In this document: piece by piece, positions 2,774 through 20,564 of the stretch
How the letters are laid out: each line of letters opens with the position of its first letter
Position numbering within the stretch: the stretch's first letter is position 1
The notes under the pieces: model-generated
What the model was told of the DNA's origin: nothing
Seen by the model: the letters and a program-made list of their open reading frames with translations, nothing else
Database searches by the model: none
Translations under genes and position numbers: made by a program
Origin: Spirochaetia bacterium
GTDB taxonomy: Bacteria; Spirochaetota; Spirochaetia; CADAEX01
Direction of reading: 5' to 3'
DNA length: 24,000 nucleotides
Assembly: GCA_017649605.1 (NCBI GenBank)
Contig: JAGCGL010000062.1
Span: forward strand, 1 to 24,000

Positions 2774-3748
2774 ATGGCCAATAAAACAGTTCTTGTTGTT
2801 CTTCCTGTGGAGGAGCGGCACAAAAAGCTTTTGGAATCGGCATACCCTGATGGAAAGTTCATCTACTGTCAGGAGAATTATCAGGAATATCTGAAGGAGG
2901 CCCAGATTCTGATCGGGAACATTCCTCCCGAGGAGATACAGCTGGGGAAAAAGCTTGAGTTCATCCAGACCAACAACGCTGGTGTGGAGCAGTACACTGT
3001 CCCCGGCGTGATCCCAGAGAACATCAAGTTCTGCTGCGCATCGGGCTGCTATGGCCTTGCAATCTCAGAATATATGATCGGCTGCGTCCTCTCCCTGATC
3101 AAGCATCTTAATGTGTACCGGGTGAATCAGCTGAACCACCAGTGGCTGGATGCAGGCCATGTGACCTCTATCTACGGAAGCAGGACTCTTGTAATTGGAC
3201 TTGGCGATATCGGCAGCGAGTTCGGGCAGAAGATGCATCTTCTGGGTAGCAAAGTGACAGGAATCCGCCGCCATACCGACGAGAAGCCCGACTGGCTCGA
3301 TGCAATCTATCCACTTGAGAAATTGGACGACATAATCGGCGATTTCGACATAGTCGCCCTCTCCATCCCCAACACAAAGGCAACTGCCCACCTTATGGAT
3401 CTGAACCGGCTTAAGAAGATGAAAAAGAGCGCAATCCTGATCAATGTGGGCCGGGGAAATGCAGTGGTGACAGCTGACCTGTGCAAAGCCCTGAACGAAG
3501 GGATAATCGCAGGTGCTGCTGTTGATGTGACAGACCCTGAGCCGCTGCCGCCGGAGAATCCGCTGTGGGATGCACCTAACATGATCATCACTCCGCATAC
3601 TTCGGGGCAGTACCATCTGCCTGAGACCCTGGAGCGGATAATCCGCCTTTCTGCCGAGAACCTTAAGGCATACACCACAGGTCAGCCGCTCAAGAGCATC
3701 GTTGATTTCAAGACTGGCTACAGATCTTTCGCAGAAAGGAAAAACTGA
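2774..3748 (+). CDS. D-isomer-specific 2-hydroxyacid dehydrogenase (NAD-dependent)
   Basis: NAD-binding site 'VIGLGDIGSEFGQK' (GxGxxG), 'ILINVGRGNAVVTADLCKAL', 'AAVDVTDPEPLP' and catalytic-His region 'ITPHTSG'. The substrate cannot be assigned from sequence. Confidence 0.85.
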   Translation: MANKTVLVVLPVEERHKKLLESAYPDGKFIYCQENYQEYLKEAQILIGNIPPEEIQLGKKLEFIQTNNAGVEQYTVPGVIPENIKFCCASGCYGLAISEYMIGCVLSLIKHLNVYRVNQLNHQWLDAGHVTSIYGSRTLVIGLGDIGSEFGQKMHLLGSKVTGIRRHTDEKPDWLDAIYPLEKLDDIIGDFDIVALSIPNTKATAHLMDLNRLKKMKKSAILINVGRGNAVVTADLCKALNEGIIAGAAVDVTDPEPLPPENPLWDAPNMIITPHTSGQYHLPETLERIIRLSAENLKAYTTGQPLKSIVDFKTGYRSFAERKN

Positions 3749-3750
3749 AG

Positions 3751-4899
3751 ATGAGCGCAAACCGAGTGGCTAATTCCGAGACAACTATCTTTACTGTGGT
3801 GAACACCCTTGCGGCCCAGTACAATGCAGTGGGCCTAAGCCAGGGGGCGCCTGACTTCGATACCCCACGCTGGGTGCTGGACATTATAAAAGAGGCCTTC
3901 GATGCAGGACGGAACCAGTATGCACCCATGTCAGGAGTCCCTGAGTTCAGGCAGGCAATAAGCGACATATACCGCACAAAGTATGGCCTTTCCTTCGATC
4001 CGGCCACACAGATCACAGTTACCAGCGGCGCCACCGAGGCTATATTTGACAGCGTATTAGCCCTGTGCGACCCGGGGGATGAGCTAATAGCATTCGAGCC
4101 TTTCTTCGATTCCTATGCCGGAAGCGCAAAGATGGCAGGATGCACCATGAAGGCTGTGACACTGCACCTGCCCGACTTCTCCTTTGACAGGAAGGAGCTG
4201 GAGGCAGCTATCACCCCCAGGACCAAGGCTATAATCATAAACAACCCGAACAATCCGACCGGAAAAGTCTATACAATGGAAGAGCTGACAGTTCTTTCCG
4301 AAGTGGCAAACAAGTACAATCTGACCATCATCAGTGACGAGGTATACGAGAACCTGGTGTTCGACGGACTTAAACATATTCCTACTGCAACAGTGCCAGG
4401 GTTGGCAGAGAGGACTATAACTATAAACTCCACAGCCAAGACATTCTCCGCCACAGGTTGGAAGATAGGCTATATCTGCACCACACCTGCGTTGACAGCT
4501 GCAGTTCAGGCAGTGCATCAGTGGGTGACATTCGCTGTCAACCACCCGATTCAGCTGGCATTCTCCAAGATTCTGCCAATCTCTGCCGAATATTCAAAGG
4601 AATTCTGTGCAGAGATGGAGAAACGGCGGGATTATTTACTTGCAAGGGCCAGCGAATGGGGCTTTGATCCGGTAAAGCCGGAGGGCTCATACTTCTTCAT
4701 GGCAACCTTCGACCGCCTTTCAAAGAAAAGCGACATGGATTTCATGGAGGAGCTTATAAAGACAAAACAGGTGGCACTGATTCCAGCATCACCTTTCTAC
4801 CTGAGCGCTGTTGATGAAGGACACAGGCTCCTGCGGTTCAATTTTGTAAAATCTATGGCAGCTTTGGAACAGGCTGACAAAAATATGAGGTCTCTATGA
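3751..4899 (+). CDS. class I aminotransferase, YbdL / kynurenine-aminotransferase-like
   Basis: Collinear with E. coli YbdL: 'TIFT', 'LSQGAPDFDTP', 'NQYAPMSGV', 'ITVTSGATEA', 'NNPNNPTGKVY', 'ISDEVYE', and the PLP-lysine motif 'NSTAKTFSATGWKIGY'. The ATG lies 2 nt after the upstream stop. Confidence 0.9.
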   Translation: MSANRVANSETTIFTVVNTLAAQYNAVGLSQGAPDFDTPRWVLDIIKEAFDAGRNQYAPMSGVPEFRQAISDIYRTKYGLSFDPATQITVTSGATEAIFDSVLALCDPGDELIAFEPFFDSYAGSAKMAGCTMKAVTLHLPDFSFDRKELEAAITPRTKAIIINNPNNPTGKVYTMEELTVLSEVANKYNLTIISDEVYENLVFDGLKHIPTATVPGLAERTITINSTAKTFSATGWKIGYICTTPALTAAVQAVHQWVTFAVNHPIQLAFSKILPISAEYSKEFCAEMEKRRDYLLARASEWGFDPVKPEGSYFFMATFDRLSKKSDMDFMEELIKTKQVALIPASPFYLSAVDEGHRLLRFNFVKSMAALEQADKNMRSL

Positions 4900-5414
4900 G
4901 CACACTGTTTATAAATGCCTGTATAAGGCCAGAATCCAGAACTCTTAAACTGGCAAAGGAACTCCTTTCCAAGCTGGAGAAGGAGACCGGAACACCTGCA
5001 GAAATTCTTAACCTGGAAGATGCAGACTTAAAGCCACTCAGCAACTCTGATATCGCCAGACGGGACAGAGCTTTGGCAGCCGGGGACTTCAGTGATCCTT
5101 TCTTTAAGTATGCAAAACAGTTTGCAGAAGCAGATATCATAGTTATAGCTGCCCCCTACTGGGACCTTTCCTTCCCTGCTCTGGTAAAGCTTTACTTCGA
5201 GGCTACATCAGTATGCGGCATCACATTCCGCTACACACCGGAGGGCTATCCTCAGGGGCTTTGCAAGGCAAAGAAGTTCTACTACGTGACTACTTCCGGC
5301 GGATTCATAGGAGACCTTGACTTCGGCTTCCAGTATGCAAAAGCCTTGACTACTAAACTTTATGGTATTCCAGATGTTGAGTGCATCAGAAAAGAGGGGC
5401 TGGATATTAAATGA
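4896..5414 (+). CDS. flavodoxin-like-fold FMN-dependent NAD(P)H oxidoreductase (AzoR/AcpD family)
   Basis: The 172-aa product is collinear with AzoR/AcpD: 'ADIIVIAAPYWDLSFPALVKLYFEATSVCGITFRYTPEG' and 'KKFYYVTTSGG'. ATGA overlaps occur at both ends (4896-4899 and 5411-5414). Confidence 0.8.
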   Translation: MSTLFINACIRPESRTLKLAKELLSKLEKETGTPAEILNLEDADLKPLSNSDIARRDRALAAGDFSDPFFKYAKQFAEADIIVIAAPYWDLSFPALVKLYFEATSVCGITFRYTPEGYPQGLCKAKKFYYVTTSGGFIGDLDFGFQYAKALTTKLYGIPDVECIRKEGLDIK

Positions 5415-6553
5415 CTTTTGATTTTAAAGTCAAAACACCTTGCTACATCATCGACACCGATATTCTTGCCGAGAATTTCAGGAATATAAAGAAAAAGGCC
5501 GATGGCGCCGGGCTTTCTCTTCTGATGGCGATGAAAGGGTTTCCCCTTCCAAAGGCATTTCCGTTTATCAAGCCTTTTGTGGATGGCATCTCCGCATCAG
5601 GGCTTTTTGAGGCAAAGCTTGGAAGCGACATGGGAAAGGAAGTGCATATCCACACCCCTGCTTACAAAGCAGAAGATGCTGAAGAAATCGCCTCTATCTG
5701 TTCCCACATTGTCCTGAATTCTCCACAGCAGGCCTCCATTTTCAGCCAGGCAGGCTCTAGGAAGAATCAATTTGCCCTGCGTCTTAATCCCCAGGTCAAT
5801 GCAGTAAAAGAGGCGGTCTACAATCCATGCGGCTCTTATTCACGCTTCGGGCTTACAAAGAACGCACTTGCAGAGGTAAAGCTTGACATCATGAATCGTA
5901 TCTCAGGCTTCCATATCCATGCCCTCTGCGGCAATTCTTCCCAGGATTTCAACAATCTGATCTCTGCGGTCATAGAAAAGTTTGCAGACTATTTACCATC
6001 TGTCTCTTGGATAAACTTAGGGGGCGGGCAGGCCTTTACAGAAGATGATTTTGACTTTGCCGATTTTCAGGAGAACCTGGATATTCTGCATACAAAATAT
6101 CATTTAAAGACCTATATTGAACCCTGTGAATATCTGGTAATGGAATCAGGTTTCCTGGCCGTTACAGTTCTGGATATTGTGCACAACGAAAAAGATATTG
6201 CAATTCTTGATACATCTCTTTCCTGCCATGCCCTTGATGTCCTTAAAAATTATTACCAGCTTCCTGTAGTCTTCCCAGAAGAGTGCAGCGGCAGAACGGA
6301 GCAGAAAACCTACAGCTACCTGCTTGCCGGAAACAGCTGCCTTGCAGGGGATGTATTCGGCGAATACACCTTTTCTGCCCCGCTGAAGCCTGGCGACAGA
6401 ATCATCTTCGGCGACATGGGCTCCTATTCCTTTGCACAGCAAAATTATTTTAATGGAATCAACTTCCCCGACATTGCTTTTTACAGTAGAATGTCTGGGA
6501 TAAAGCCCGTTAAAAGCTACACTTATGCAGAATACGAGAACATCTATGACTGA
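5411..6553 (+). CDS. nspC: carboxynorspermidine/carboxyspermidine decarboxylase-like PLP enzyme
   Basis: The 380-aa product is collinear with Vibrio-type NspC: 'TPCYIID', PLP-Lys region 'LLMAMKGF', 'DGISASGLFEAKLG', 'RLNPQVN', 'YSRFG', 'INLGGG', 'YIEPCEY', 'AGNSCLAGDVFG', 'YFNG'. Confidence 0.8.
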   Translation: MTFDFKVKTPCYIIDTDILAENFRNIKKKADGAGLSLLMAMKGFPLPKAFPFIKPFVDGISASGLFEAKLGSDMGKEVHIHTPAYKAEDAEEIASICSHIVLNSPQQASIFSQAGSRKNQFALRLNPQVNAVKEAVYNPCGSYSRFGLTKNALAEVKLDIMNRISGFHIHALCGNSSQDFNNLISAVIEKFADYLPSVSWINLGGGQAFTEDDFDFADFQENLDILHTKYHLKTYIEPCEYLVMESGFLAVTVLDIVHNEKDIAILDTSLSCHALDVLKNYYQLPVVFPEECSGRTEQKTYSYLLAGNSCLAGDVFGEYTFSAPLKPGDRIIFGDMGSYSFAQQNYFNGINFPDIAFYSRMSGIKPVKSYTYAEYENIYD

Positions 6554-7346
6554 GAAAGAAATAATTGAGAAAATGGTCGATGAATTTGTATGCGACCTTG
6601 GCTGCCCCTGCAACTGCTGTCTGGAATCGGCTGGCGGAATTATGCTTGACGGGGAATATGAAAAATATAAGAAATATGATGGAAAAAAACTTGTTGATGG
6701 CACTGTTTTCAACCTAAAGGAAATGGTTGAAGAAACAGAGGACGGGCTCCGGTTCAAGCAGGACAAAAATGGTGTCTGCATTCTTGTTAAGGACGGCAGG
6801 TGTCTTTTTCAATCAACTTTCGGCAGGAACGTACTCCATTATGAATGCCGGGAATATCCTAGGTGGACAATGCATTATAAAAGTCATGTGGAAAAAATGC
6901 TGTCTCCGGTATGTCCACATGTCACAGAGCTTTTCCTTAAGGACAATCTCTATTTCTGGGATTACATGACACAGGTGATTGAACCTGATCCAGATAATCT
7001 GTTTGAGGAAAGAAGACAGATTATTATGGTTTTGCGGGATGAAAACACAGCCCTGTCAGATGCCCTGGCCCTTCTTTGTTCCAGATACGGAATTGACCAC
7101 ACTTGTTCAGCCGGCATCTCCCTTTCCAAGGAAATCGAGGATATTTTGCGTCATCAGCTTGCCTGCACATTCTTCTGCGAGCTGCTCCAGAAGGGATATG
7201 ACAGAGAATATTTTGAATATACTGTTCCTTACTGTCTGAGCTCTGGTATTAAAATATATGATTATCTATGTGACATCGAGAATCTTAACCGCAACAATAT
7301 TGCGGTTCATTTTAACAAGGCCTGCTATAATGCCATACGGAAATGA
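6546..7346 (+). CDS. cysteine-cluster protein, YkgJ/CxxCxxCC (FliB-like) family
   Basis: There is an N-terminal Cys knot 'CDLGCPCNCC', then 'NGVCILVKDGRCLFQ' and 'HYECREYPR'. This mirrors the family pattern CxxCxxCC ... G-C-x-FL..dG-C-x-IY..RP..CR.FP. I prefer the start at ATG 6546 (8-nt overlap, ATGACTGA, with the nspC stop). An upstream ATG at 6525 is the alternative. Confidence 0.6.
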   Translation: MTEKEIIEKMVDEFVCDLGCPCNCCLESAGGIMLDGEYEKYKKYDGKKLVDGTVFNLKEMVEETEDGLRFKQDKNGVCILVKDGRCLFQSTFGRNVLHYECREYPRWTMHYKSHVEKMLSPVCPHVTELFLKDNLYFWDYMTQVIEPDPDNLFEERRQIIMVLRDENTALSDALALLCSRYGIDHTCSAGISLSKEIEDILRHQLACTFFCELLQKGYDREYFEYTVPYCLSSGIKIYDYLCDIENLNRNNIAVHFNKACYNAIRK

Positions 7347-7358
7347 TATGGGGAATCT

Positions 7359-7991
7359 ATGCTGACATTCAGAGCCGCCAGAAAAGAAGAACAGAAAGAA
7401 ATCTGCGAACTTTTTACAGATGCCTACATGGACTATGATTTTTTCATACCTCTCGAGAATAACCTTGACTGGCGGTGGAAATTTATCTATGAAGTTCATA
7501 TGCTCTCCATAAAGACAAACATAAAAAGAAGGCAGCTTTTTGTCGGGGAAGACGATGGACAGATTATTATGGGGTTTATATTTCAGGATCCTGAGAAAAA
7601 ACAACCTGGATTTCTTGATTACCTCTTTGCCGGTGCTGTACCTGCAATAATTAGGTCTGGGTTAAGCAAAATACTTTTATGGAACTCTATGGATGAACAG
7701 AGCGAAAAACCAATAAAACTTCTTATGAAAAATGAACCACATATATACTATCTTCAGGATCTTGCCGTCAGAAAGGATTCCCAGAAAAAGGGATACGGAA
7801 GCCGTGTCTTTAAGGACTTTCTGATTCCTTATATAAAAAATAAGGGCGGCGGCACCCTTGCCCTGATCACAAACTCCAAAAAAAATTACAATTTTTACTG
7901 CAGGCGAGGTTTTACCTGCTTTGAATCCAGCCAGTTTATGTGCAGAAACACTGCAATTGATAACTGGTGCTTTAGAATGGAAATCGTCTGA
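7359..7991 (+). CDS. GNAT-family N-acetyltransferase
   Basis: Motif A 'YYLQDLAVRKDSQKKGYGSRVFKDFL' (Q/RxxGxG/A acetyl-CoA loop) and motif B-like 'LITNSKKNYNFYCRRGF'. An SD-like GGGGA lies at 7350-7354. The acceptor is unknown. Confidence 0.75.
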   Translation: MLTFRAARKEEQKEICELFTDAYMDYDFFIPLENNLDWRWKFIYEVHMLSIKTNIKRRQLFVGEDDGQIIMGFIFQDPEKKQPGFLDYLFAGAVPAIIRSGLSKILLWNSMDEQSEKPIKLLMKNEPHIYYLQDLAVRKDSQKKGYGSRVFKDFLIPYIKNKGGGTLALITNSKKNYNFYCRRGFTCFESSQFMCRNTAIDNWCFRMEIV

Positions 7992-8030
7992 CTTATTGCT
8001 TTAACAGTAATATTAATATATATATAATAT

Positions 8031-9170
8031 ATGACTGACTATGAAATTGAGATGGAGCTGGACAGGGCAGTGCAAGATTGCCAGAAGCAAGGGTATCCTT
8101 CTGTAAATCTTTCTACCTGGAATTCAGGCTCTGAATATAAAGAACAGCTTAAAAACATCCTCAAACTTGACAACGGAATTGATATTTTTGACTATCAATA
8201 TTACTTCCAGGAGGATGCCAGGAAGAAATTGGCCTATAAACTGGGTTTCTCTGCCGAAGATTGCAAAAAAGAATTCTTTCATGCTCTTACACAAAGCACC
8301 CTTTCTATCGCGACTATTGCAGTTCTTCTTTCAAGAATGGAAACAAAGCTTGGGATAATCTCTCCCTACTATTTTTCTGTTCCAGACTGCTGTGATGACT
8401 TAAAGCTGCCATACACGATTTTTGCCGATTTTATGGAAGATATAAATGAATCTTTTGACGTAGATTTACTCCTGAAATCCGACTGTACTGCCTTTTGGTT
8501 CACTTCTCCGCTCAACTCCTGCAGCATCTATTTCGGCCAGCGGGTAACAGAAAGTATTCAAAAACTGCTGGATGCCGGGAAGCTGGTAATTTTAGACGAA
8601 TCCCTGTGCATAAACGGCAGGGAACTTTCCCGTACATTCGGCATACAGGAAAATCTTATTTATATCTACAGCCCCCATAAAGCACTTGGTATCCAGGGCA
8701 TAAAGTTCTCGGTCCTGGTAGCACACAAAAAATTCTATGATGATATTGACAGCCTGGGCGACAGTTATGGTGGCTCACTCAACTACTCATGCCAGCAGGG
8801 GTATTTTCATTTTATCTCGCCTAATTTTGATGAATGTATGACTGTGTACAACAAGTTCTGGCAGAAAAATCTTTCTGCTGCCAGACAGGTTCTGGCTTCT
8901 TACAGTTTTGCCTCTCTGTCAGCGGAGACTTATGGCCATTACGCTATGATTTTCATCGACAGCACACTTGATGACAGATGCTTTGTCGACGCCATGAAGC
9001 AGCTGATGAGGGAAAAAGGCTATTTTGTCTATCCCGGCGTTATGCAATGCTTTGACCCAAAACATCACTTCTGTTTCCGAATAAATCTGCTTTTAAACCG
9101 GACTGATCTAGAGCATGGGCTTAAAGCTGTCCTGGATTTTTTCAAAGATAACATAGGAGCAGACAGATGA
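8031..9170 (+). CDS. divergent fold-type I PLP-dependent enzyme (aminotransferase class I/II-like)
   Basis: 'IYIYSPHKALGIQGIKFSVLV' resembles the S-x-x-K PLP-lysine strand followed by G-x-(R/K)-x-(G/S). 'LVILDESLC' is an Asp strand. 'WFTSPLNSCSIYF' sits where NPxNPTG normally is. The C-terminus has 'FCFRINL'. This is a family-level call only. No SD precedes the ATG; the upstream 39 nt are almost pure A/T. Confidence 0.55.
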   Translation: MTDYEIEMELDRAVQDCQKQGYPSVNLSTWNSGSEYKEQLKNILKLDNGIDIFDYQYYFQEDARKKLAYKLGFSAEDCKKEFFHALTQSTLSIATIAVLLSRMETKLGIISPYYFSVPDCCDDLKLPYTIFADFMEDINESFDVDLLLKSDCTAFWFTSPLNSCSIYFGQRVTESIQKLLDAGKLVILDESLCINGRELSRTFGIQENLIYIYSPHKALGIQGIKFSVLVAHKKFYDDIDSLGDSYGGSLNYSCQQGYFHFISPNFDECMTVYNKFWQKNLSAARQVLASYSFASLSAETYGHYAMIFIDSTLDDRCFVDAMKQLMREKGYFVYPGVMQCFDPKHHFCFRINLLLNRTDLEHGLKAVLDFFKDNIGADR

Positions 9171-12118
9171 TTCCATTTCTACAACGATTATCAGAAGTTT
9201 CAGTAAAATATCCAAGCCGTCCGGCAGCCGTTGACCGTGATGGCGAGCGCTCAACAACCTATTCCCAGCTAAATGATTATTCAAGCCGGGTCGCTTCCTA
9301 CTTGCGGGCACTGGGCTTAAAAAAAGAAGACCTGATTGCCATAAAACTGGAAAAGTCCATGGAATATGTGGCGGTGCAACTGGGCGTGATGAAATGCGGC
9401 TGTGCCTTTGTACCGATTTCCGATGCAATGGGCCAGGAGCGTATAGAGCATGTGCTTGCCGACTCTGGCGCCAAATTTGTTTTTGATGCTGCACACTGGG
9501 ATAAGGCCATGGACTGCCACCCCCTGCCGGAAGCAGACTGGGCAGAAAGCGATGAGCACGACCTTGCGTTTATTATCTATACATCGGGAAGCACAGGGAT
9601 GCCCAAAGGCGTTGTGGAAGAATACGGAGCTTACCGCTTTATGGCAAAGGGCACTGCCGAGGAAGTGCTGGAGCCTTATACCATGCAGGATGACGCAATC
9701 CGCTTTGCAAATGTGGCACCGGTAACATTCTCTGCATTTACCATTATCAATGTGTGCATGGTCTGCGAAGCTTGGACTAACTATATGGTCTCGGGCGAGG
9801 TTGTCAGAAATCCGCTGCTTTATATGCAGTTCCTTAAAGAACACAGAATAGATGCAATGTTCCTGACTGCATCGCTGGTAAAGCCCCTTTCTGACAACGA
9901 GAGCCTTTCGCCAAAAGTTATATATCTTTCTTCCGAGCGGGTAAGCGATGTATACAGCTCAAGATTTGCAGTTTTGAACATCTACTGCAACTCGGAGCTT
10001 ATGTCCACCGCCTGCAATTTTGTTATCGATAAACCCTACTCAAACACGCCCATCGGTGCACACTGTTCCTATACAGACATGGTGCTTCTTGATAACGACT
10101 CCGTTTCTGAGAAAGAAGGGGAAATCTGCCTCCATCTTCCATTTTTCCGCGGCTACCTTAACCAGAAAGAAGAGAATGAGAAAGCTTTTGTTGTAATCGA
10201 TGGAAAAAAATTCTTCCGCACCAGAGACTTTGCCCGCCGGGGAGAAGACGGACTTCTGTATGTCCTGGGCCGGGCAGACGACATGGTTAAAATAAACGGA
10301 AACCGTGTAGAGCCGGCCGAAGTGGAGACAGCCCTTAAAAAAGTGCTGGAAACTAAGGTTGTGGCAGTAAAGGCATTTGAGAACAATGGCAAGTATTATC
10401 TCTGCGCCTATTATCAGAAAGAAGATACTGTTCCCGTAGAAGAAATCCGTGCTTCCCTAAAAACACTGCTTCCTGACTATATGATTCCATCCTATTATGT
10501 CCGCTTTGAGAAAATGCCCCTCAACACAAACGGGAAAATTGACAAAAAATCACTGGCACCACCAGCTTTTGAAGAGAATCATGCCGAATATGTGCCGCCG
10601 GAAACCGAGACACAGAAAATCCTCTGCTCTGCGGCCGAGGGGATTCTGGGAGATCTTTACAATGTGGGGAAAATAGGAATTGATGATGACCTGATACTGC
10701 TGGGCGGTGACAGTATATGCGCCATGAATCTGATAGCAGAATGCAAGACCCTTCCGTTGTCCGTTCCGCTGATTATTGGGAAGCGTACTGTGCGTGCCAT
10801 TGCAGAGGCGGTAGAGGCTCTAAAGGCCCAGAATTCCCATCCCGGACAGAAGATACATCTTACAAAAGCACCACTTAATGACATACAGCTGATTATGCTC
10901 CAGGACGATATCGCCTTCCCTGTAACAACAATGTTCAATCTGACGTATATAATCACTCTGCAGGACAATGTGGATTTAGGCCAGTTCGCCAAAGCTGTAA
11001 GAAAAGCTGTCTCTGCTCATCCTGCTCTTTTAAGCGTCATAGAGAAAGAGGGCAACATATACTATCTGCGTTACGAGCCCAGCTTTGACAAGGAAACTCC
11101 TGTGGAGACTATGAGCAATGACGAGCTAGCCGAGACCTTAAAACACTTTATAAGGCCCTTCCTGCTTGATGGAAGCCCCCTTTTCCGCACCCGGATTATC
11201 AGAACACCGGGGCAGAACGTTTTCCTTTTTGATGCATATCATGTCATTGCCGACGGAAATTCCATGGAAATTCTTATGGACGATATTGCCCGCAGTCTTC
11301 GTGGCGATTCCATTGGTAAAGACAAAATATTCCAGGAATTGCAGAAAGAGGCAGACTTTAAGAGCACCGGAACCTATTCCCAGGACAATGCATATTTCAA
11401 GGACCGATACGACAAGGACGGCTGGCATACACGACCACAGCCCGACTATGACACAGATAAGAATATCCTTGACACCATTACAGGCGATTTCCAGTTCTCC
11501 AAAGAGCGTGTTGCCGACCTATGCCGGAACTATGGGCTGGGGAAAAATGAATTCTATGCTGCGGCGGCTGCCCTTGCCATATCTATGTATAACAAGGTCC
11601 AGAATGTAATGCTGTCCTGGGTATGGAACGGCCGGGAAGCAGCCGCGGAACAGCGTTCTGTCGGGGTCTTCTACAAGGACTATCCTATTGCCTTTACTAT
11701 TGGAGATAAGACCAAGCTGAAGGATCTGCTTATGCAGGCAAAGGAGCAGGCGCTGGAGGGCATTGCCCATGGAAGCCTTTCCTATTTCGACAGACCAGGT
11801 CTTTACCAGGGGCATGATGTGTTCTGTCTTCTGTATCAGGGCGATATGTACAACTGCGACAAATACACCAGTTTTATGAAAAAGGCTGCCGAGTCCTTGG
11901 AGACAGATGAGTTCCCATGCGCCTGCGGCAATTCGCCGGAGCTTGAGATACTTGACAGCAGAACGGAATTCGGTTTTATCCTTGATTATAACGCAGCAGA
12001 GTACAAGAGTGAAAGCATGGAAAAGTTCCTGGGTCTCTTCACCAATTCCTGTGAAATGCTTTTAAAAGTAGAGGAAAATCCTGATATTGCAGTCGGAGAT
12101 ATAAAAAACTATGAGTAG
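9167..12118 (+). CDS. single-module non-ribosomal peptide synthetase, A-T-C
   Basis: 983 aa. A domain: A3 'YTSGSTGMPKG' (nt 9578-9610), A5-like 'NIYCNSE', A6 'GEICLHLPFFRGY', A7/A8 'FRTRDFARRGEDGLLYVLGRADDMVKINGNRVEPAEVE', A10 'NGKIDKKSL'. T domain: 'LLGGDSICAMNL' (Ser516, nt 10712-10714). C domain: C1 'APLNDIQLIML', C3 'AYHVIADGNSM' (His692, nt 11240-11242). There is no TE or R domain. SD AGGAG lies at 9155-9159, and an ATGA overlap links it to the upstream gene. Confidence 0.9.
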   Translation: MIPFLQRLSEVSVKYPSRPAAVDRDGERSTTYSQLNDYSSRVASYLRALGLKKEDLIAIKLEKSMEYVAVQLGVMKCGCAFVPISDAMGQERIEHVLADSGAKFVFDAAHWDKAMDCHPLPEADWAESDEHDLAFIIYTSGSTGMPKGVVEEYGAYRFMAKGTAEEVLEPYTMQDDAIRFANVAPVTFSAFTIINVCMVCEAWTNYMVSGEVVRNPLLYMQFLKEHRIDAMFLTASLVKPLSDNESLSPKVIYLSSERVSDVYSSRFAVLNIYCNSELMSTACNFVIDKPYSNTPIGAHCSYTDMVLLDNDSVSEKEGEICLHLPFFRGYLNQKEENEKAFVVIDGKKFFRTRDFARRGEDGLLYVLGRADDMVKINGNRVEPAEVETALKKVLETKVVAVKAFENNGKYYLCAYYQKEDTVPVEEIRASLKTLLPDYMIPSYYVRFEKMPLNTNGKIDKKSLAPPAFEENHAEYVPPETETQKILCSAAEGILGDLYNVGKIGIDDDLILLGGDSICAMNLIAECKTLPLSVPLIIGKRTVRAIAEAVEALKAQNSHPGQKIHLTKAPLNDIQLIMLQDDIAFPVTTMFNLTYIITLQDNVDLGQFAKAVRKAVSAHPALLSVIEKEGNIYYLRYEPSFDKETPVETMSNDELAETLKHFIRPFLLDGSPLFRTRIIRTPGQNVFLFDAYHVIADGNSMEILMDDIARSLRGDSIGKDKIFQELQKEADFKSTGTYSQDNAYFKDRYDKDGWHTRPQPDYDTDKNILDTITGDFQFSKERVADLCRNYGLGKNEFYAAAAALAISMYNKVQNVMLSWVWNGREAAAEQRSVGVFYKDYPIAFTIGDKTKLKDLLMQAKEQALEGIAHGSLSYFDRPGLYQGHDVFCLLYQGDMYNCDKYTSFMKKAAESLETDEFPCACGNSPELEILDSRTEFGFILDYNAAEYKSESMEKFLGLFTNSCEMLLKVEENPDIAVGDIKNYE

Positions 12119-13832
12119 TCAGTCAACATTCTTAAAAAGAAAATTTTTCTCGTTGCTGATACCTGGAACAATAAGCATGGTTGTAGTAACGCTGCTCCTG
12201 CTTTCGGATTCTGTGATTGCCGGCCTTATGCTGGGCCAAGATGCAGTTGCAGCCATAAGCCTTGTTACCCCGGCTTATAGCTTGGCTGCTTTTTTTGCCG
12301 GTATGATCGCAAGCGGCGTTCCCATTCTCTACTCAAAAGCTATGGGAGAGTTCAACAAAAAAGCAGCAGACCGCTATTTTGCGCTGGGATTTACATCAGC
12401 TATTGCCATAGGAATCATCCTGACCCTCGCCGCTTCTGTATTCGGAGACACCTACCTGCGTTCCTATAAAGCTTCCGAAGCAGTATTCAATCAAGCACAC
12501 GACTACTTTTTCTGGTATAAGCTAACCATTCTGCTCAGCGCGCTGAACATGCTTATCTCCGAGATGATACTGACCGACGGCGACGAGGCCCTGAGCCTTG
12601 TCTCAAGTTTAGTGCAGGTTGTGGGAAACATTGTACTTTCTGTTATCCTTGCCCACTTCTTCGGCATATCGGGAATTGCTTTCGCCTCTTTTGCAGGAAC
12701 TGCTGCTGCTCTTATTATTGCATCTGTCCATTTCCTCAGAAAGGCCAACTCCCTCAAAATAGGTTTTTTCTTTTCTTTCAAAGAGCTTCTTCCTGTAGTA
12801 AAATACAGCATAATCGATGCAGGCTCCTATCTTTTTCTTGCCTGCTTTACTGTTGGAATAGAGCATTTTATCATAGTAACCTATGGCCAAGAGATGCTGA
12901 TCCTGGCCTCTGTATTCCTGCTTGTAAAAGAGTTCCAGATGGTGTTTGACGGCATTGGAGAAGCTGTTACCCCGATTATGAATATTTATGTAGGAGAAGA
13001 ATCCTGTCCGGCAATCCGGAAATGCTACCGGCTTGCAAAAAAGGCAGCAATCATCGAAGGGTTTATTGTAACACTGGTTATATTAGCATTCTCGCCCTTC
13101 ATTGTAAAAATATATGGCATCGCAGACCCGGATATTGTAGGATTTGCCGACAAAGGGGCAAAAATTATTGCCCTGGGGCTTGTTCATATAAGTCTTTTGT
13201 ATTTGCTTACATCATACTACATTATAATCGACCGGATTCTGCTGGGCTTTGTCATCAGCGGCCTTCGGGATATGATTGTGGCTCTGCCTCTGTGTATGCT
13301 GTTTGGAAAGCTTTTCGGCATATACGGAATGTTTGCAGGCGGTGCCCTGGCTCCTATTGCAGCCTATTATCTTTCACTTCTTTTCGTGCGCATAAAATAC
13401 GGCAGAGAAAATACACCTCTTCTCCTTGCAGATCGGGAAAAATCTTTAAAAGCTGCTTTCTACGAGTTTACCATCACCCCAGAAGCAACTATCGCAGTTC
13501 AGAAGAACATAGGAGACTTCCTGCGGGCAAATAATGTGGACAGAAAGCTGATTGCAAAAACAGAGCTGCTTATCGAGGAGCTCTATATGCTGGTGTACGA
13601 GCGGAACAATAAAAAGCCTACAGTCTGTGCAGAATGTACAGCCCTTATCAGGGACGACGGCATTCAGATCATCGAAAAAGACGATGGCCTTTTGTTCAAC
13701 CTGACAGATGAGGATTCTCTGCCAAGCTCGCTGGGAGCTTTCGTGGTTGCAAGCTATATGGAAAAAATGCATGGAAACAAGATGTACCTTACCACAATGA
13801 GCTACAACCGCAATACTTTCAAGGTAAAATAA
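12111..13832 (+). CDS. MATE-family transporter fused to a C-terminal SpoIIAB/RsbW-like (GHKL, HATPase_c_2-like) domain
   Basis: 573 aa. Residues ~10-440 are polytopic, with a MATE-type N-terminus ('LLIPGTISMVVVTLLLLSDSVIAGLMLGQDAVAAISLVTP...GVPILYSKAMG'). Residues ~447-573 (nt ~13449-13829) are soluble and collinear by eye with anti-sigma kinases: 'ELLIEELYMLVYE', 'IQIIEKDDGLLFN', 'SLGAFVVASYMEKM'. The gene overlaps the NRPS stop by 8 nt. Confidence 0.8.
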   Translation: MSSQSTFLKRKFFSLLIPGTISMVVVTLLLLSDSVIAGLMLGQDAVAAISLVTPAYSLAAFFAGMIASGVPILYSKAMGEFNKKAADRYFALGFTSAIAIGIILTLAASVFGDTYLRSYKASEAVFNQAHDYFFWYKLTILLSALNMLISEMILTDGDEALSLVSSLVQVVGNIVLSVILAHFFGISGIAFASFAGTAAALIIASVHFLRKANSLKIGFFFSFKELLPVVKYSIIDAGSYLFLACFTVGIEHFIIVTYGQEMLILASVFLLVKEFQMVFDGIGEAVTPIMNIYVGEESCPAIRKCYRLAKKAAIIEGFIVTLVILAFSPFIVKIYGIADPDIVGFADKGAKIIALGLVHISLLYLLTSYYIIIDRILLGFVISGLRDMIVALPLCMLFGKLFGIYGMFAGGALAPIAAYYLSLLFVRIKYGRENTPLLLADREKSLKAAFYEFTITPEATIAVQKNIGDFLRANNVDRKLIAKTELLIEELYMLVYERNNKKPTVCAECTALIRDDGIQIIEKDDGLLFNLTDEDSLPSSLGAFVVASYMEKMHGNKMYLTTMSYNRNTFKVK

Positions 13833-13839
13833 TTTTTAC

Positions 13840-14706
13840 TTAATACACATCAAAGCTGCCCAGGTAGCGGAACTCAAAGCCACTTTTTCCAGTCAGCTTC
13901 TGATAGCTTTTATAAGAGCCGGCACATTCAATAAGGTAATAGTATTCGCCAAGCTCTGTCTTTCTTGGTCTGTCATGGATTGCGACCAGAGTCATTTTCT
14001 TCTTTTTCATCTCTGACATCAGCGACGGGAGATTGTCTGCTTTGCCAGTAGCTATGAAGGCAAGCCTCTGTGCTGGTTCTTCTGCTGGTGTATTAAGGGA
14101 AAGCACATAAAAGCGGGTCTTGTTCTTATTGCTGCTCTGGATACCGGGGGCAAGAATCTCAAGCCCGTACACATCAGCACAGGCTGCAGAGGAAATAGCC
14201 GCATAAGCTGGATCCTTCTTTTCTGAGACCAGCCGAGCCCCTTCTGCAGTGCTTGATACCTCGGTCACTTTTGCACCAGGAATGTTCTTTGTTAGCCATT
14301 CCCTCCCCTGGATGATGCCCTGCTTATGGGAGAAAACTTCTTTAATGTCACTAAGCTTTGTACCGGGAAGAGCCAGGAGGTTCTGGCTTATCAGGAGCTC
14401 AACCTCGCCGCAGACAGAGACCTCCTTGTTAGATATCAGAACATCGACATAATCAAGGACAGCGCCGCCTATTGTATTCTCCTGGGGAATCACCGCATAA
14501 TCGCATCTCCCCTCAACCAGAGCCTGAACTGCCTTGCTTACACTTTCAAATGGAATGAATGTTCCCTGCTTATCGAAGAAAACCTGGCTGGCTTCCTGGG
14601 AATAGGTGCCCTGCGGACCAAGATAACTTACCACCGGCTCTGCCTGGGCAGAGACAAATAAAGCCAGGCAGAGAACCAGCAGTATTAAAAGCTTTTTACT
14701 TCTCAT
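13840..14706 (-). CDS. pheA: prephenate dehydratase (PDT + ACT domains) with N-terminal signal peptide
   Basis: Signal peptide MRSKKLLILLVLCLALFVSAQA|EP. PDT domain: 'VSYLGPQGTYSQEA', 'DYAVIPQENTIGGAV', 'VFSHKQGIIQGREWL', 'AAISSAACADVYGLEIL', 'NKTRFYVLS'. ACT domain: 'LVAIHDRPRKTELGEYYYLIEC...FRYLGSF'. The start overlaps the upstream gene's stop by 11 nt. Confidence 0.85.
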   Translation of the reverse strand: MRSKKLLILLVLCLALFVSAQAEPVVSYLGPQGTYSQEASQVFFDKQGTFIPFESVSKAVQALVEGRCDYAVIPQENTIGGAVLDYVDVLISNKEVSVCGEVELLISQNLLALPGTKLSDIKEVFSHKQGIIQGREWLTKNIPGAKVTEVSSTAEGARLVSEKKDPAYAAISSAACADVYGLEILAPGIQSSNKNKTRFYVLSLNTPAEEPAQRLAFIATGKADNLPSLMSEMKKKKMTLVAIHDRPRKTELGEYYYLIECAGSYKSYQKLTGKSGFEFRYLGSFDVY

Positions 14707-17700
14707 CCTCGTAATCGATCAGCTCTGCCACACCTGGATTCTCTTTGTACCGTATGACATTGAGCATGAAGATGTTCAGCTTGTTGATGATGTTCGGCGG
14801 CAGCTGGTTGCCGTCAATCTCAATGGAGATAGCCGGATACTTGTTCTGCCGTGCATAAGGCATGTACAAGCCCTCGATGACACGTCCGATAAGGCATGCG
14901 AACGGCGAGATGTTGACAACACCAGAGTAGCCTTCTTCCATAGCTGTAGCTGCCGCACCGCTTGAGATAGAGATCTCGGAGTTAAGCTCGTAGCTTACAA
15001 ACTTGAGTGTGTTGGCCATAATCTTCTTCATGTCGTGCGGCGACTTAGGAATAAGACCGCATGGCTCCAGGGCCTCCCTTATCTTGGACTCGGTGCTCTC
15101 TTTCCATGCCTCTGCAAGCTTGAGGATCAGGAGCTTCTTGGTGTTCTCGCTGAATATCTTCTTATACCACGGGAATACGGTCCGCTCCCTCTTGAGGAAG
15201 TACTCCTGCACAAAGTCGGTGTAGTGGATCCATTCGCCAATGCCTGAGACCTTGGCTATGATACCCTTGTCAGCACAGGATCTGATAATCTCGTCCACTG
15301 CATAGTCGTCACGGCGGACATAGATCTCGCCCACAACCAGCACCTTCGGACACTTCTCTGGGTCTTTCTTCAGAGGAATTTTCTTTACACGTTCAGCAAA
15401 CACCTTGAGGGCAGGAACAATGTTCTTCCACCCTTTCTTGGCCTCTTCTAGCACATACTTCACACCATCGTTGACCTCGCTCATGGCATAGGCTCTGTCA
15501 ACAGCGCAGGTGCGCAGTGTTGTCTGGATATCCTTCAGGTAGTCGGCGGCGCAGAGTGCCCACCACATAATCTTGGAGAACCCTGCCCCGAGCTCTGAAT
15601 AGGAGTGGTCTGCGCTCAGCGTGAAGACAACCACATTCTCAAGCCGCAGGTCGCGGAACAGGTTCTGGTAGAAGACAAAGTACTGTCCTGTACGGCATGG
15701 TCCTGTTGTGATCGGGACAAAGATCATGTATGTTGTGCTCTTGTCGTACTTGTCAGATGCAAAGTACTCAAGCATCGAGCCTAAAAGCAGCAGTGATGGA
15801 ACACACTCCTTTCCTGATGCATGGTTCCGGGCAAAGCGCAGTGTGCGCGGTGTCGGAATAGGGACAGCCTCGGCATTGAAGCCCAGGGACTGCGCTGTGG
15901 CAGCCATGGATCTTGCAGAGATATCGCCCATGTTGGAGAGGAGAATCTTAACCTTCTTGTTGCCGCGGATCGCAATATCCTCCCCTGTGTGCTCGTTATG
16001 GAGATGTGGCTCGCTCTTTCCGTCGTTCACGAACCGGAGGCCGTTGTCATAGCGCTCCTCGTCCTTTCCACTGTACTTAAGCCGGTAGCCTTCGATAATA
16101 TCCAGGAATGCCTCCACACGGGTATCCACACCTGCGTCTGCAGAGTGGGAATCGAGCTCCAGCACCAGGAATGGCTTGGTCCCCATTATCCACTTAAGGT
16201 AGTGAAGCATGAATGAGTCCGGTGCGCAGGAGAAGTTGCTGACCCATGTGACAAAGATATTCGGGTTATCCTTCATATTGAAGGCTGTGTGCATATCCTT
16301 CTGGCCATAGTACCAGTACATGTTAGGGAATATCTTCTTGTCGCCTATCGGCAGGATATCGAACGGAATAACTGTGTTGCCACGGGATGTGAACTTCCGT
16401 GGAATACCGATGTTGGCCTCTTTCGCAAATGCGTTGTATGGCCGTCCAAGAAGCGCGATCACTGGCTGTGCCTGAGTCTTTGCATATTCAAGGGCTTCCT
16501 CGCCCAGCTTGAAGGCAGCCTCTTGGTATTCGTTCTGCTTCTTAAGAGCCACATTGAAGGCCTCTTTAGCCTCGGCCTCGGTGAATCCCAGCTTCTCGCC
16601 CAGCTGGATAAAGAACTCTACAGCCTTGTCCAGACCGGTTCTGAAGCTCACTACTGGAGAGAGAATCTTCTCCTCCGGAATCTCAGGGAAAGCCTTCTTG
16701 ATGTAATATGGCAGGCTCTGTGTTATAGGACAGAAGTTTGCGTGAATATCGCTCTCATGGCTCGGCATGTCGCGGTAATGAGGCAGCAGGATGTAATCTG
16801 TCTTTTTGTCCAGGATATCCTGCACTGCTCCGTGGGCAATCTCTGCAGGGAAGCAGTAGGTGGACTCAACCCTTGCGACGCCGGAGTGCGGCACATTTTC
16901 GGAAAGGACTGTCTTAATACCCAGCTGGTGGAAGTACCAAGCGTAGAAGGGGTAGAGCGTATAAACAGAGAAGGCCTTCGGAATGCCCACAGTGTAATCC
17001 CGCTTCTTAACAAAGCTGGCCTCGTCCGGAGCAAATGTCTTGAACATAAGGTCGTTACGCTCATCCACAAAGTTGCGGATCTTGGACTCGTCGAACAGCT
17101 TCTTCTTGCGTGAGTTGGTGTACTTTGAGCACCGACCGCCGAACATATACTTGTTGCCGTTCACCTTGAGGATGCGGATAGGACACTGGTTCTCGCAGGA
17201 TTTGCACTTGAACTCGCTCTCGTAGATGATCTCTGTCTCGAGAATCTTGTCGATGTCGAAGGTGGCCTTGGAGATGAGCCCCTCCTTGAACTTCTGCTTT
17301 GCCAAAAGACCTACGCCGAAGCATCCCATGAGCTCAGGATCTGGCGGAACCAGAATCTCCTTGCCCAGAAGGAGTGCGAATGCCAGAGGGATAGCCTTGT
17401 TCTTGGCCACGCCGCCCTGGAGGAATATCTTGTTGCCCACAGTCCTGTTTCCGACAACTCTGTTCAGGTAGTTGGAGACAATGGATGTGACAATTCCTGT
17501 AGTTATATCAGCCCGGGTCGCACCCTGCTGGATAGCTTTTCTGATATCTGAGTTGATGAATGCAGAGCAGTGCTCGCCGAACTTGAGAGGGTTCTCTGCC
17601 TCAAGGGCAATGTCACCGATCTCCCAGGCGTGTGCAATGTTCAGGTCGCCGGATGCCGATTCCTCGAGGAAGGAGCCTGTACCTGCAGAGCAGGCCTCAT

Positions 17701-19046: not shown

Positions 19047-20564
19047 TTATCTGCGGTAGAGAGCCTTGGTTGCAAACTCGGCATCGCTTGTGGAGTGGAA
19101 ACCGAGCTTCCTCAGGCCGTCTGCATCGCCCGGAGATGGCACATGGGTCATGTGGATCTCGCACCCTTCCAGATCCTTAAGCTTCTTAAGGGCAGTTGCA
19201 GCAGTCGGATTTATGGCGGCAGCCAGAGCGAATGCTATAAGAGTCTCCTCAAGGTTCAGGCTGACAGAGGCGCTTTTAAGGACATCCTCCTTGAAGTCTG
19301 CCAAGGACTTGAGGATAGTGCTTGGAAGAAGCTCAACCTCGTCAGATATTCCTGCCAGCCTCTTGGCAGCCGAGAGGACAACGCTGGATGCGGCGTGGAG
19401 AAGCGGAGAGTTGTGGCCTGTCACAATAGTACCGTCCGGCAGCTCGATTGCGGCGCCGCTGTAGATACCCCGGTTTCCCTTGTTTTTCTCCTTGGCAATC
19501 TGGGCAGCCTCCCGGGCCGGAACTACGGTGCTCCTGTCCTCCTGCTTAAGCCCCATATCCTTCATGATAAGCTCTACCCGCTGCAGAGTTTCGGTGCTGC
19601 AGAGGCCAAGGGCCTGCTCACATGCATAGCGGAAATACCGGCGTATCACCTCCTGCTCGCCAGCCTTGCGCACCACCTGGTCATCTATGATGGCGTTTCC
19701 GGCCTGGTTTACACCCATATCGGTCGGAGATTTGTAGATAGAGGGAGCATTGGTGATCTTCTCGATAATCCGCTGGACAATCGGGAATGCCTCGATATCG
19801 CGGTTGTAGTTGACAGTCTTAACATCATAGGCCTCAAGATGGAAGTGGTCTATCATGTTCACATCCTTGAGCTCTGCGGTGGCAGCCTCGTATGCTCTGT
19901 TCACTGGGTGATTCAGCGGGAGGTTCCAGATAGGGAAGGTCTCGAACTTAGCATAGGCTGCTTTTACTCCCCTCTTATGCTCGTGATACATCTGCGAAAG
20001 GCAGGTTGCCAGCTTTCCGCTTCCCGGGCCGGGGCCTGTCACTACAACGACAGGTTTTTCAGTCTCAATATATGGATTTGCTCCGTAGCCCTGCTCGCTT
20101 ACAATCAGATCCACATCGGTGGGGTACCCTTTGGTGAACTTGTGGGTATAGACCTTCATTCCGCGGTTCTCCATGGTGGTCCGGAATGCATCGGCAGAAG
20201 GCTGTCCGTCGTATCTTGTAATTACAATTGCTTTTACGGAAATGCCCCATGCCCTGAAGTCGTCGATAGTCTTCATCACATCGGAGTCGTAGGTTATGCC
20301 GAAGTCGGCCCGCACCTTCTTCTTCTCGATGTCGGGAGCAGAGATGCACATGATCACATCCACGGAGTCCTTCATCTTTGCAAGGAGGTGCATCTTCACA
20401 TTGGGGTCAAAACCAGGCAGAACCCGGGCGGCATGGAGGTCGAAAAGAATTTTGCCGCCGAATTCCAAATAGAGCTTGTCGCTGTTGCAATCCTTTATCC
20501 TGTCAAGAATTGTCTCGCTCTGAAGCTTAAGATATAGGTCGTTGTCAAAGCCTTTTTTGAACAT
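19047..20564 (-). CDS. UPF0371 / DUF1846 family protein
   Basis: The 505-aa product is collinear with UPF0371 proteins: 'GFDNDLYLKLQSETILDRI', 'KLYLEFGGKILFDLHAARVLPGFDPNVK', and a P-loop-like 'VVTGPGPGSGKLATCLSQMYHE'. SD GGGAGGG precedes the ATG. Confidence 0.8.
   Translation of the reverse strand: MFKKGFDNDLYLKLQSETILDRIKDCNSDKLYLEFGGKILFDLHAARVLPGFDPNVKMHLLAKMKDSVDVIMCISAPDIEKKKVRADFGITYDSDVMKTIDDFRAWGISVKAIVITRYDGQPSADAFRTTMENRGMKVYTHKFTKGYPTDVDLIVSEQGYGANPYIETEKPVVVVTGPGPGSGKLATCLSQMYHEHKRGVKAAYAKFETFPIWNLPLNHPVNRAYEAATAELKDVNMIDHFHLEAYDVKTVNYNRDIEAFPIVQRIIEKITNAPSIYKSPTDMGVNQAGNAIIDDQVVRKAGEQEVIRRYFRYACEQALGLCSTETLQRVELIMKDMGLKQEDRSTVVPAREAAQIAKEKNKGNRGIYSGAAIELPDGTIVTGHNSPLLHAASSVVLSAAKRLAGISDEVELLPSTILKSLADFKEDVLKSASVSLNLEETLIAFALAAAINPTAATALKKLKDLEGCEIHMTHVPSPGDADGLRKLGFHSTSDAEFATKALYRR

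Follow-up and report, generated by a model that had tools for sequence, protein, structure and literature searches.

The 24,000 nt window analysed here (positions 1 to 24,000 of contig JAGCGL010000062.1, assembly GCA_017649605.1, from a Spirochaetia bacterium) contains a block of nine genes, designated g1 to g9, on the + strand between 2774 and 13832, one of which, g8, encodes a single-module nonribosomal peptide synthetase (NRPS) with an adenylation-thiolation-condensation (A-T-C) domain order. This NRPS belongs to a real, widespread and uncharacterised system that has an orphan pyridoxal 5′-phosphate (PLP) enzyme, g7, as its partner. In a first-pass annotation, the nine genes had been taken as a single biosynthetic cluster in which g1 and g2 produce, in cis, the 2-hydroxy or 2-oxo acid that the A domain loads. 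Comparison with related loci points instead to a chimera, with g1 to g3 forming a resident operon and g4 to g9 an NRPS island inserted at its 3′-end.

A resident operon and a predicted island insertion

The first three genes encode a D-isomer 2-hydroxyacid dehydrogenase (g1, 2774-3748, +; Pfam 2-Hacid_dh_C, 160 bits), a class-I aminotransferase of the KAT/YbdL/methionine-aminotransferase type (g2, 3751-4899, +; Aminotran_1_2, 205 bits, with 395 for PRK07777 and 378 for PRK09082 among the NCBIfam models, both below the cut-offs), and a C-terminally shortened NAD(P)H oxidoreductase with a flavodoxin-like fold (g3, 4896-5414, +; Flavodoxin_2, 84 bits). Homologues of g1, ~52-55% identical, are widespread in Clostridium, Fusobacterium and Lachnospiraceae. 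In a related spirochaete (L108; loci surveyed here carry L numbers), a g1 that is 69% identical to that of the window is found in the gene order TPM-LemA-pyrC, g1-g2-g3, a 1424-aa gene, DUF1846 and TatD; this locus has no NRPS gene, and nothing is present between g3 and the convergent 1424-aa gene, the same chromosomal slot as in the window. A further spirochaete relative (L109) has a syntenic g1-g2, also without the island. As these two loci carry g1-g2(-g3) in the absence of the island, g1 to g3 would be the residents and g4 to g9 the insertion. Sister spirochaetes, with NRPS proteins 76-87% identical to g8, have g1, g2, g3, g4, g7, the NRPS and genes for STAS, MATE and SpoIIE proteins in this same slot, between pyrC and a 1425-aa BcrAD/DUF2229 gene, and a homology census of all fetched loci revealed that g1 to g3 are absent from every NRPS locus outside the spirochaete clade of the window.

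Three further features agree with an insertion. The G+C contents at third codon positions (GC3) of g1 (0.63) and g2 (0.58) are like those of the core flanks (0.52-0.66), whereas those of g4 to g9 are 0.43-0.52. The g3 product is shorter in the window (172 aa) than in L013 (187 aa) or L108 (192 aa), and the 15-23 residues missing from its C-terminus are lost at the point where g4 begins. The specificity code of the A domain is shared regardless of the presence of g1 to g3: the code SAIFMSLSTK is identical in L008, which has no g1 to g3, and in L013, L016, L095 and L099, which have them. No direct repeats or att-like sites were found flanking the island. With g1 to g3 as a resident operon and g4 to g9 as an insertion, the 2-hydroxy or 2-oxo acid supply in cis loses its basis, and the apparent wiring of g1 and g2 to the NRPS is probably an accident of insertion; g1 to g3 are most simply regarded as having no part in the chemistry of the island.

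The single-module NRPS

The NRPS gene g8 (9167-12118, +) encodes recognizable adenylation (Pfam AMP-binding, 158 bits) and condensation (Condensation, 104 bits) domains; its score with TIGR01733, 199.7, is below the cut-off of 317. The A domain (~9200-10561) has the core motifs A3 (IIYTSGSTGMPKG), A8 (GRADDMVKINGNRVEPAEVE) and A10, the last with its lysine (NGKIDKK), and atypical A5 (NIYCNSE) and A7 (FRTRD) motifs. The T domain (10631-10813) has the carrier serine in the sequence LLGGDSI (Ser516, 10712-10714), a residue that is invariant in 17 relatives. The C domain (10862-12085) retains the catalytic histidine in YHVIADG (His692, 11240-11242); His692 and Gly697 are invariant in the same 17 relatives and Asp696 is nearly so. 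The A-T-C architecture read from the sequence in the first-pass annotation is thus borne out by the T-domain serine and C-domain histidine. There is no thioesterase (TE) domain, no reductase (R) domain and no second module. The nearest C domains in the PDB are ordinary elongation domains (E ~1e-11 to 1e-13), and we know of no sequence signature that marks an amine-accepting C domain of the VibH type.

The A-domain specificity code of g8 is SAIFYSISTK, with a serine (Ser189, 9731-9733) at the position of the aspartate, Asp235 in GrsA numbering, that binds the α-amino group of amino acid substrates. The code was obtained from an alignment anchored on the A3 to A5 region of GrsA; the GrsA fragment used reproduces the published code DAWTIAAICK. 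Aligning with GrsA without the A3 anchor would place A4 on FDAAHW, an assignment rejected as this sequence lies upstream, before A3. The suspected loss of the α-amino-binding aspartate was confirmed, and extends to the whole family: an aspartate occupies position 235 in 0 of 89 NRPS relatives. All 12 loci with a g7 gene, with NRPS identities from 47 to 100%, have a code of the form SAIF[YMA]S[IL]STK together with the odd A5 motif N[IL]YCN[ST]E. In two Treponema loci without g4 and g7 (L007 and L015) the code is VVDFYACPVK, and their NRPS proteins are nested within the g7-bearing clade as the sister of the window group (100 of 100 neighbour-joining bootstraps). The Ruminococcus-type NRPS branch, 32% identical, has the code VAIFFGIFAK.

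The orphan PLP enzyme and its decarboxylase partner

The gene immediately upstream of the NRPS, g7 (8031-9170, +), encodes a fold-type-I PLP enzyme with the PLP-lysine motif SPHK, in which the lysine is Lys217 (8679-8681), and an invariant arginine, Arg350. It has no Pfam match and, among the NCBIfam models, matches only GntC faintly (E 2e-6). An AlphaFold2 (AF2) model (pLDDT 76) was matched by Foldseek to fold-type-I aminotransferase-like enzymes at 10-17% identity, namely KAT-II homologues, GntC, CobD-like decarboxylases and PdxR. Close relatives fall into only 52 clusters, each from Spirochaetia, Treponema or Fibrobacter; among them is a protein of the cultured Fibrobacter succinogenes (WP_163438355.1). 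A profile search of 1.84 billion representatives extended the family to 344 representatives, of which none, to our knowledge, has been characterised; one g7-like protein (P0382), with neighbouring genes that were uninformative, has a faint PNP_UDP_1 fragment.

The first gene of the island, g4 (5411-6553, +), encodes a PLP-dependent decarboxylase of the carboxy(nor)spermidine decarboxylase (CANSDC) family, as had been proposed in calling it NspC-like. It scores 343.8 bits with TIGR01047 (NspC), below the equivalog cut-off of 409, and 286 bits over its full length with the solved CANSDC 9eaf; cluster-linked relatives of g4 in L008 and L112 (335 and 363) are likewise below the TIGR01047 cut-off. 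Enzymes of the CANSDC family decarboxylate N-substituted 2,4-diaminobutyrates.

Several arrangements link g7 to the NRPS and to g4. The three genes are adjacent in L008, L013, L016, L018, L019, L095, L096 and L099, and both g7 and g4 are found only in the spirochaete/Fibrobacter subclade of the NRPS cassette. In L112, which has no NRPS gene, a g7-family member lies beside an nspC-like decarboxylase gene 38% identical to g4. In L110 (87-3016), a 3 kb contig, a g7-like PLP domain and a C domain (motif LHAFYDT) are fused in one 790-aa protein; its C domain is homologous to that of the window (E 5e-12), a MatE gene is located directly 3′, and the 5′ sequence has a promoter-like element, TTGAGC-N17-TATAAT, rather than an A-T gene. 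The A-domain code, the PLP-C fusion and the pairing with nspC-like genes suggest that g7 is tied both to the NRPS and to g4, and mark it, on present comparisons, as the accessory gene with the tightest link to the NRPS. A role as a minor tailoring enzyme, as first assigned to it, does not fit a gene whose presence is tracked by the A-domain code in 12 of 12 loci and which has a relative fused to a C domain.

The exporter and partner-switching genes

The last gene, g9 (12111-13832, +), encodes a long MATE-family transporter, in accord with the exporter predicted from its motifs. The MatE repeats are matched over two stretches (72.6 bits, cut-off 24.9); the score with NCBIfam TIGR00797 is 74.9, below the cut-off of 147. 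MATE transporters typically move organic cations. The C-terminal 132 aa (~13434-13829) resemble, at E 0.007, a degenerate HATPase_c_2 (RsbW-like) domain, and in a Ruminococcus-type MATE orthologue the C-terminal 130 aa are an HATPase_c_2 domain with E 5e-12. When all ORFs neighbouring the NRPS genes of the surveyed loci were clustered, the neighbours included long MATE proteins of ~570 aa (49), which were the most frequent, STAS proteins (40) and SpoIIE proteins (37), and the regulator/exporter region of one sister locus (L013, 13013-17505) has the MATE gene together with those for STAS and SpoIIE. An RsbW-like domain accompanied by STAS and SpoIIE proteins implies, on the basis of these domain assignments, that the exporter is probably under partner-switching control. 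In the window, the STAS and SpoIIE genes have been lost and the RsbW-like domain is degenerate.

In the Ruminococcus-type branch, a type-B carboxylesterase of ~556 aa with a C-terminal membrane anchor is encoded directly 3′ of the NRPS gene, in L086 (3624-5330) and in 32 other loci, which hints that the product of that branch may be ester-linked or prodrug-like.

Distribution of the cassette

Relatives of the NRPS are encoded in at least 557 species genomes, with one genome scanned per species. The hosts, as judged from 80 that were inspected, are mostly Spirochaetia, Treponema, Fibrobacter, Lachnospiraceae/Butyrivibrio, Ruminococcus and other Clostridia of the rumen and herbivore gut. Gene content differs among the branches: Fibrobacter/Treponema loci, with NRPS proteins 47-53% identical to g8, have g4, g7 and the NRPS gene, or g7 and the NRPS gene, without g1 to g3; a Treponema relative with 68% identity has only the MATE and NRPS genes; and the Firmicutes have the MATE and NRPS genes with or without the regulators. 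The A-T-C NRPS and long MATE together therefore appear to constitute a mobile cassette that horizontal transfer has distributed, for the most part among bacteria of the rumen and herbivore gut. The NRPS of the window is identical to proteins from rumen metagenome-assembled genomes (MAGs) designated 'Spirochaetia bacterium' (MBO7516465.1 and MBO7430281.1), and the contig itself recurs in several ruminant gut assemblies. No match to the window, taken whole, was found in the E. coli genome.

NRPS clusters rank with the most frequent biosynthetic loci of rumen genomes, almost none has a known product, and the censuses of rumen biosynthetic gene clusters (BGCs) count such clusters without characterising them (PMC8241843). 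Our literature search found no characterised product or description of this NRPS family, only general BGC censuses and a note on Methanobrevibacter ruminantium considered below, consistent with the earlier statement that no characterised cluster has this gene set.

Gene order and transcription

All nine ORFs were located on the + strand with the coordinates originally assigned, and the junctions from g1 to g9 (+2, -4, -4, -8, +12, +39, -4 and -8 nt) were reproduced, two of them depending on the choice of start codon. With g5 starting at ATG 6546, the start chosen by gene callers on identical contigs, the g4/g5 junction is -8 nt, versus -29 nt from the first ATG at 6525; for g9, ATG 12111 gives a g8/g9 junction of -8 nt and the alternative start TTG 12153, preferred by gene callers, +34 nt. 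Pfam or NCBIfam families match eight of the nine products (E 1e-7 to 1e-118) and are of the kinds named in the first-pass annotation. Profile searches upheld its calls at the level of families; g3, called there an AzoR-type flavoreductase, scores 52.5 bits with the NCBIfam azoreductase model (cut-off 188) and is assigned only to the Flavodoxin_2 fold family. Given these matches, and the 52 clusters of conserved homologues of g7, the nine ORFs can be regarded, from sequence conservation, as real genes rather than chance ORFs.

Upstream of g1 there is a TATAAT sequence (2750-2755) and an AGGAG ribosome-binding site (RBS; 2763-2767). A site scan with a shuffle control found no convincing + strand terminator inside the block: 10 terminator-like sites were present on the two strands, versus 11.3 expected from shuffled sequences, and all were within coding sequence. 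The inference that the block has no internal terminators was thus sustained, and g1 to g3 are probably co-transcribed with the island from a promoter 5′ of g1. The best sigma-70-like match of the block, TTAACA-16-TATAAT (11 of 12 positions; 8001-8028, +), is located in the AT-rich stretch of 39 nt that separates g6 from g7. Its 3′-end is just 3 nt from the g7 ATG, with no Shine-Dalgarno sequence visible, and it could provide a leaderless or internal start created by the insertion of g5 and g6. The window has no Rfam families and no tRNAs.

A species-specific insertion within the island

The two genes between g4 and g7 had been included in the biosynthetic system as a cysteine-cluster protein and a GNAT. 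The complete set of nine genes is, however, present only in the species of the window, and g5 and g6 are absent from all sister loci. The g5 product (6546-7346, +) is cysteine-rich, with an N-terminal CDLGCPCNCC, and weakly resembles the N-terminal half of the flagellin lysine-N-methylase FliB (NF038110, E 1.3e-15; 57.8 bits, below the cut-off of 85, and covering only model positions 4-185 of 373). It has no Pfam match, a search of PDB sequences returned nothing informative, and a single-sequence AF2 model (pLDDT 34) was unusable; a homologue in L032 sits in an unrelated context. The g6 product (7359-7991, +) is a GNAT-family N-acyltransferase (Acetyltransf_7, 31.5 bits, cut-off 27) for which PDB matches are to generic GNATs only. 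With G+C contents of 0.42 for g5 and 0.39, the lowest in the block, for g6, these genes appear to be a low-GC, species-specific insertion that lies outside the conserved system.

Proposed pathway and alternatives

The interpretation that we favour, with moderate confidence, combines a resident operon with an inserted island in which the NRPS would load an acid without an α-amino group, the C domain would join this acid to a polyamine-type unit made by g7 and g4, and the MATE protein would export the product. The A domain, with a polar pocket that lacks Asp235, would adenylate the acid and load it onto the T domain. As there is no TE domain, R domain or second module, the terminal C domain would then release the acyl group by condensing it, in an intermolecular reaction, with a free nucleophile rather than by transfer to a downstream module, and off-loading onto a decarboxylase-linked amine is the most plausible form of this step. 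The nucleophile, or possibly the loaded acid itself, would be a polyamine-type block from g7 and g4. In such a route, g7 could be an aminotransferase that makes a diamino acid or a Mur24-like 3-amino-3-carboxypropyl transferase, and g4 would then remove the carboxylate from an N-substituted 2,4-diaminobutyrate-like (3-amino-3-carboxypropyl) intermediate. In the species of the window, the FliB-like g5 and the GNAT g6 may N-modify free amines, and the product exported by g9 would presumably be cationic.

Some observations weigh against this interpretation. The ATGA overlaps at g3/g4 and g7/g8 make it very probable that g1 to g3 are co-expressed with the island, and they may have been recruited to a role in it. 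L009 has g7 without g4, so g4 must be dispensable or supplied in trans. The co-variation of the A-domain code with g7 is silent on whether the g7/g4 product occupies the donor or the acceptor site, and the type of reaction catalysed by g7 appears ambiguous, as aminotransferases, CobD-like decarboxylases and cyclases all match its model at 10-17% identity. The linkage made by the C domain could be an ester instead of an amide, in keeping with the carboxylesterase encoded downstream in the Ruminococcus-type relatives. The Pfam PP-binding score of g8 (19.8) falls just under the cut-off (20.8), with the domain called in most relatives.

The main rival, which we think unlikely but not negligible, is that g7 and g4 make the acid that is loaded, a polyamine-like ω-amino acid, and that the C domain couples it to a second copy or to a common metabolite, giving a dimer or oligomer in the manner of a soluble analogue of the ε-poly-lysine-type synthetases. 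Loss of g4 and g7 coincides exactly with a change of the code at 7 of its 9 variable positions, in a clade in which the code is otherwise invariant; the pocket is rich in serine and threonine, versus the hydrophobic VAIFFGIFAK of the Ruminococcus-type relatives, and the PLP-C fusion would suit a monomer that doubles as the acceptor. This chemistry is, however, wholly inferred, no residue of the pocket is placed to bind an amine in a known way, and the described products of CANSDC-family enzymes are polyamines without a carboxylate. We consider it very improbable that the scheme first proposed is correct, in which g2 and g1 act in cis to turn an amino acid into a 2-oxo acid and this into a D-2-hydroxy acid for loading by the A domain, the C domain releases it as an amide on an amine derived from g4, and all nine genes act as one unit. 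This scheme agrees with the tight packing and overlapping of the genes on a single strand and with the RBS and promoter-like site 5′ of g1, as it does with the missing Asp235, a feature of A domains for 2-oxo and 2-hydroxy acids, and the arrangement of g1 to g4, g7 and g8 is kept in all of the sister spirochaetes sampled. Those sister loci share their flanks, however, so that the conservation reflects inherited synteny, and the scheme is opposed by the stand-alone g1-g3 operon, in the same slot without an NRPS, by the identical A-domain code in Fibrobacter/Treponema clusters that lack g1 to g3, by the core-like GC3 of g1 and g2, and by the membership of g1 in a broadly distributed family of housekeeping type.

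A further alternative is a function in the cell envelope, in which the cassette would acylate an envelope component (a lipid, a glycan or a polymer resembling teichoic acid), as Dlt or AlmEFG do, with the MATE/MOP-type protein as a flippase rather than a small-molecule exporter. The A domain is generically similar to DltA, MATE proteins belong to the MOP superfamily, which includes flippases, and one relative (L012) lies inside a polysaccharide/nonulosonic-acid locus with genes for glycosyltransferases, NeuB and a Wzx-type Polysacc_synt protein. Yet this last locus already has, in the Polysacc_synt protein, its own flippase, envelope genes are not near most of the other loci, hosts of the cassette include diderms as well as monoderms, and the transporter matches MatE rather than MurJ or Wzx models; we regard an envelope function as very improbable.

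Comparison with known systems

None of the known systems compared is a member-level match. A parallel to the release step that we favour is found in vibriobactin assembly by VibE, VibB and VibH, where a carrier-bound acid without an α-amino group is moved by a C domain to a free polyamine, as proposed here, and where a CANSDC-family decarboxylase, NspC, is on the pathway to the amine, norspermidine. Unlike that system, in which VibH is free-standing and VibE and VibB are separate proteins, g8 has A, T and C in one polypeptide; its A-domain pocket has no relation to the codes for aryl acids, a decarboxylase encoded within the cluster is paired with an orphan PLP enzyme instead of carboxynorspermidine dehydrogenase (CANSDH), and there is a MATE exporter, an anaerobic host and nothing that points to a siderophore. 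In rhabdopeptide/xenortide-type systems, a terminal C domain off-loads the chain onto a free amine derived from a decarboxylase, as proposed for g8. These assembly lines are multi-module or iterative and use the products of aromatic-amino-acid decarboxylases, whereas the window has one module, a donor that is presumably not an amino acid, and a CANSDC-family enzyme. The Drosophila β-alanyl-amine synthase Ebony has a single A-T module and, after it, a domain that catalyses condensation of free biogenic amines with the thioester, and its donor is also not an α-amino acid; unlike in g8, its C-terminal domain is not a C domain, and it is a eukaryotic protein without a dedicated amine pathway or exporter.

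For g7 and g4, there is a resemblance to Mur24/Mur23 of muraymycin and MccD/MccE of microcin C, pairs that transfer a 3-amino-3-carboxypropyl group to an amine, which is followed by PLP-dependent decarboxylation. An aminopropyl group is installed by Mur24, a PLP enzyme with a class-I fold in the aspartate-aminotransferase superfamily, and then by the PLP decarboxylase Mur23; the parallel route employs MccD, a transferase dependent on S-adenosylmethionine (SAM), with the decarboxylase domain of MccE (PMC10491745). Unlike Mur24, g7 has no specific similarity to ACC-synthase-like enzymes, and g4 is in the CANSDC branch. The accessory set of STAS, SpoIIE and MATE that accompanies most members of the NRPS family has a counterpart in M. 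ruminantium M1, in which mru0066-0071, noted in 2010, comprise a rumen NRPS gene flanked by genes for a STAS anti-sigma-factor antagonist, serine phosphatases and MatE, with a product that is unknown (PMC2812497). That NRPS, mru0068, is described as having two C-A-T modules and a terminal release domain (PMC2812497), whereas the family of the window has a single A-T-C module, and the window copy has neither STAS nor SpoIIE.

Flanking genes

Downstream of the island, a prephenate dehydratase gene (13840-14706, -) overlaps by 11 nt the stop codon of the gene (14696-18973, -) for the 1425-aa protein, which has two BcrAD_BadFG ATPase domains and a DUF2229 domain and is like a 2-hydroxyacyl-CoA dehydratase activase. 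The prephenate dehydratase gene is present in the island-bearing spirochaetes and absent from L108 and L109. It was considered, and rejected, as a supplier of phenylpyruvate, because it and the resident 1425-aa gene overlap on the other strand and because the Fibrobacter-type clusters lack it. The next gene (19047-20564, -) encodes a DUF1846 protein, and the pair formed by this and the 1425-aa gene is conserved beside g1 to g3 in all related spirochaetes.

Further downstream, a 290-aa ORF (21323-22195, -) has a G+C content of 0.31 and a GC3 of 0.20. It scores 262 bits with UzuA, a component of the Uzume anti-phage defence system, and includes a weakly matched GIY-YIG domain. In L108 there is nothing between TatD and a MurD-like gene, at the syntenic position, and the UzuA-like ORF therefore looks like a small defence islet, as judged from this one comparison. 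On the other side, a few kb upstream of the TPM-LemA-pyrC-g1 region, L108 (1-5327) and L109 (238-4212) encode Cas12a (Cpf1) with Cas4 and Cas1, and the island-bearing L001 and L002 have a PLD/SNF2 helicase gene in place of the Cas12a genes.

Implications

For genome mining, the block is a caution: tight packing with ATGA overlaps can make an inserted island continuous with a resident operon to which it is unrelated, and so packing alone does not define a cluster. For g7, a bolder but doubtful extension is that it founds an uncharacterised PLP family which, with a CANSDC-type decarboxylase, makes a polyamine-like block without carboxynorspermidine dehydrogenase, one possible route being PLP-dependent 3-amino-3-carboxypropyl transfer, and that the A-T-C NRPS converts this block to a secreted cationic amide or oligomer. 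If so, cellulolytic rumen spirochaetes and Fibrobacter would have a class of metabolite of their own, with a partner-switching module, fused to the MATE protein, gating export elsewhere. The four-gene core of g4, g7, NRPS and MATE is also present in the cultured F. succinogenes, which offers a tractable entry to the system. Hundreds of species have the A-T-C and MATE cassette, among them the main fibre degraders (Fibrobacter, Ruminococcus, Butyrivibrio and Treponema), and its product could therefore act in the rumen as a signal or antagonist of ecological importance.

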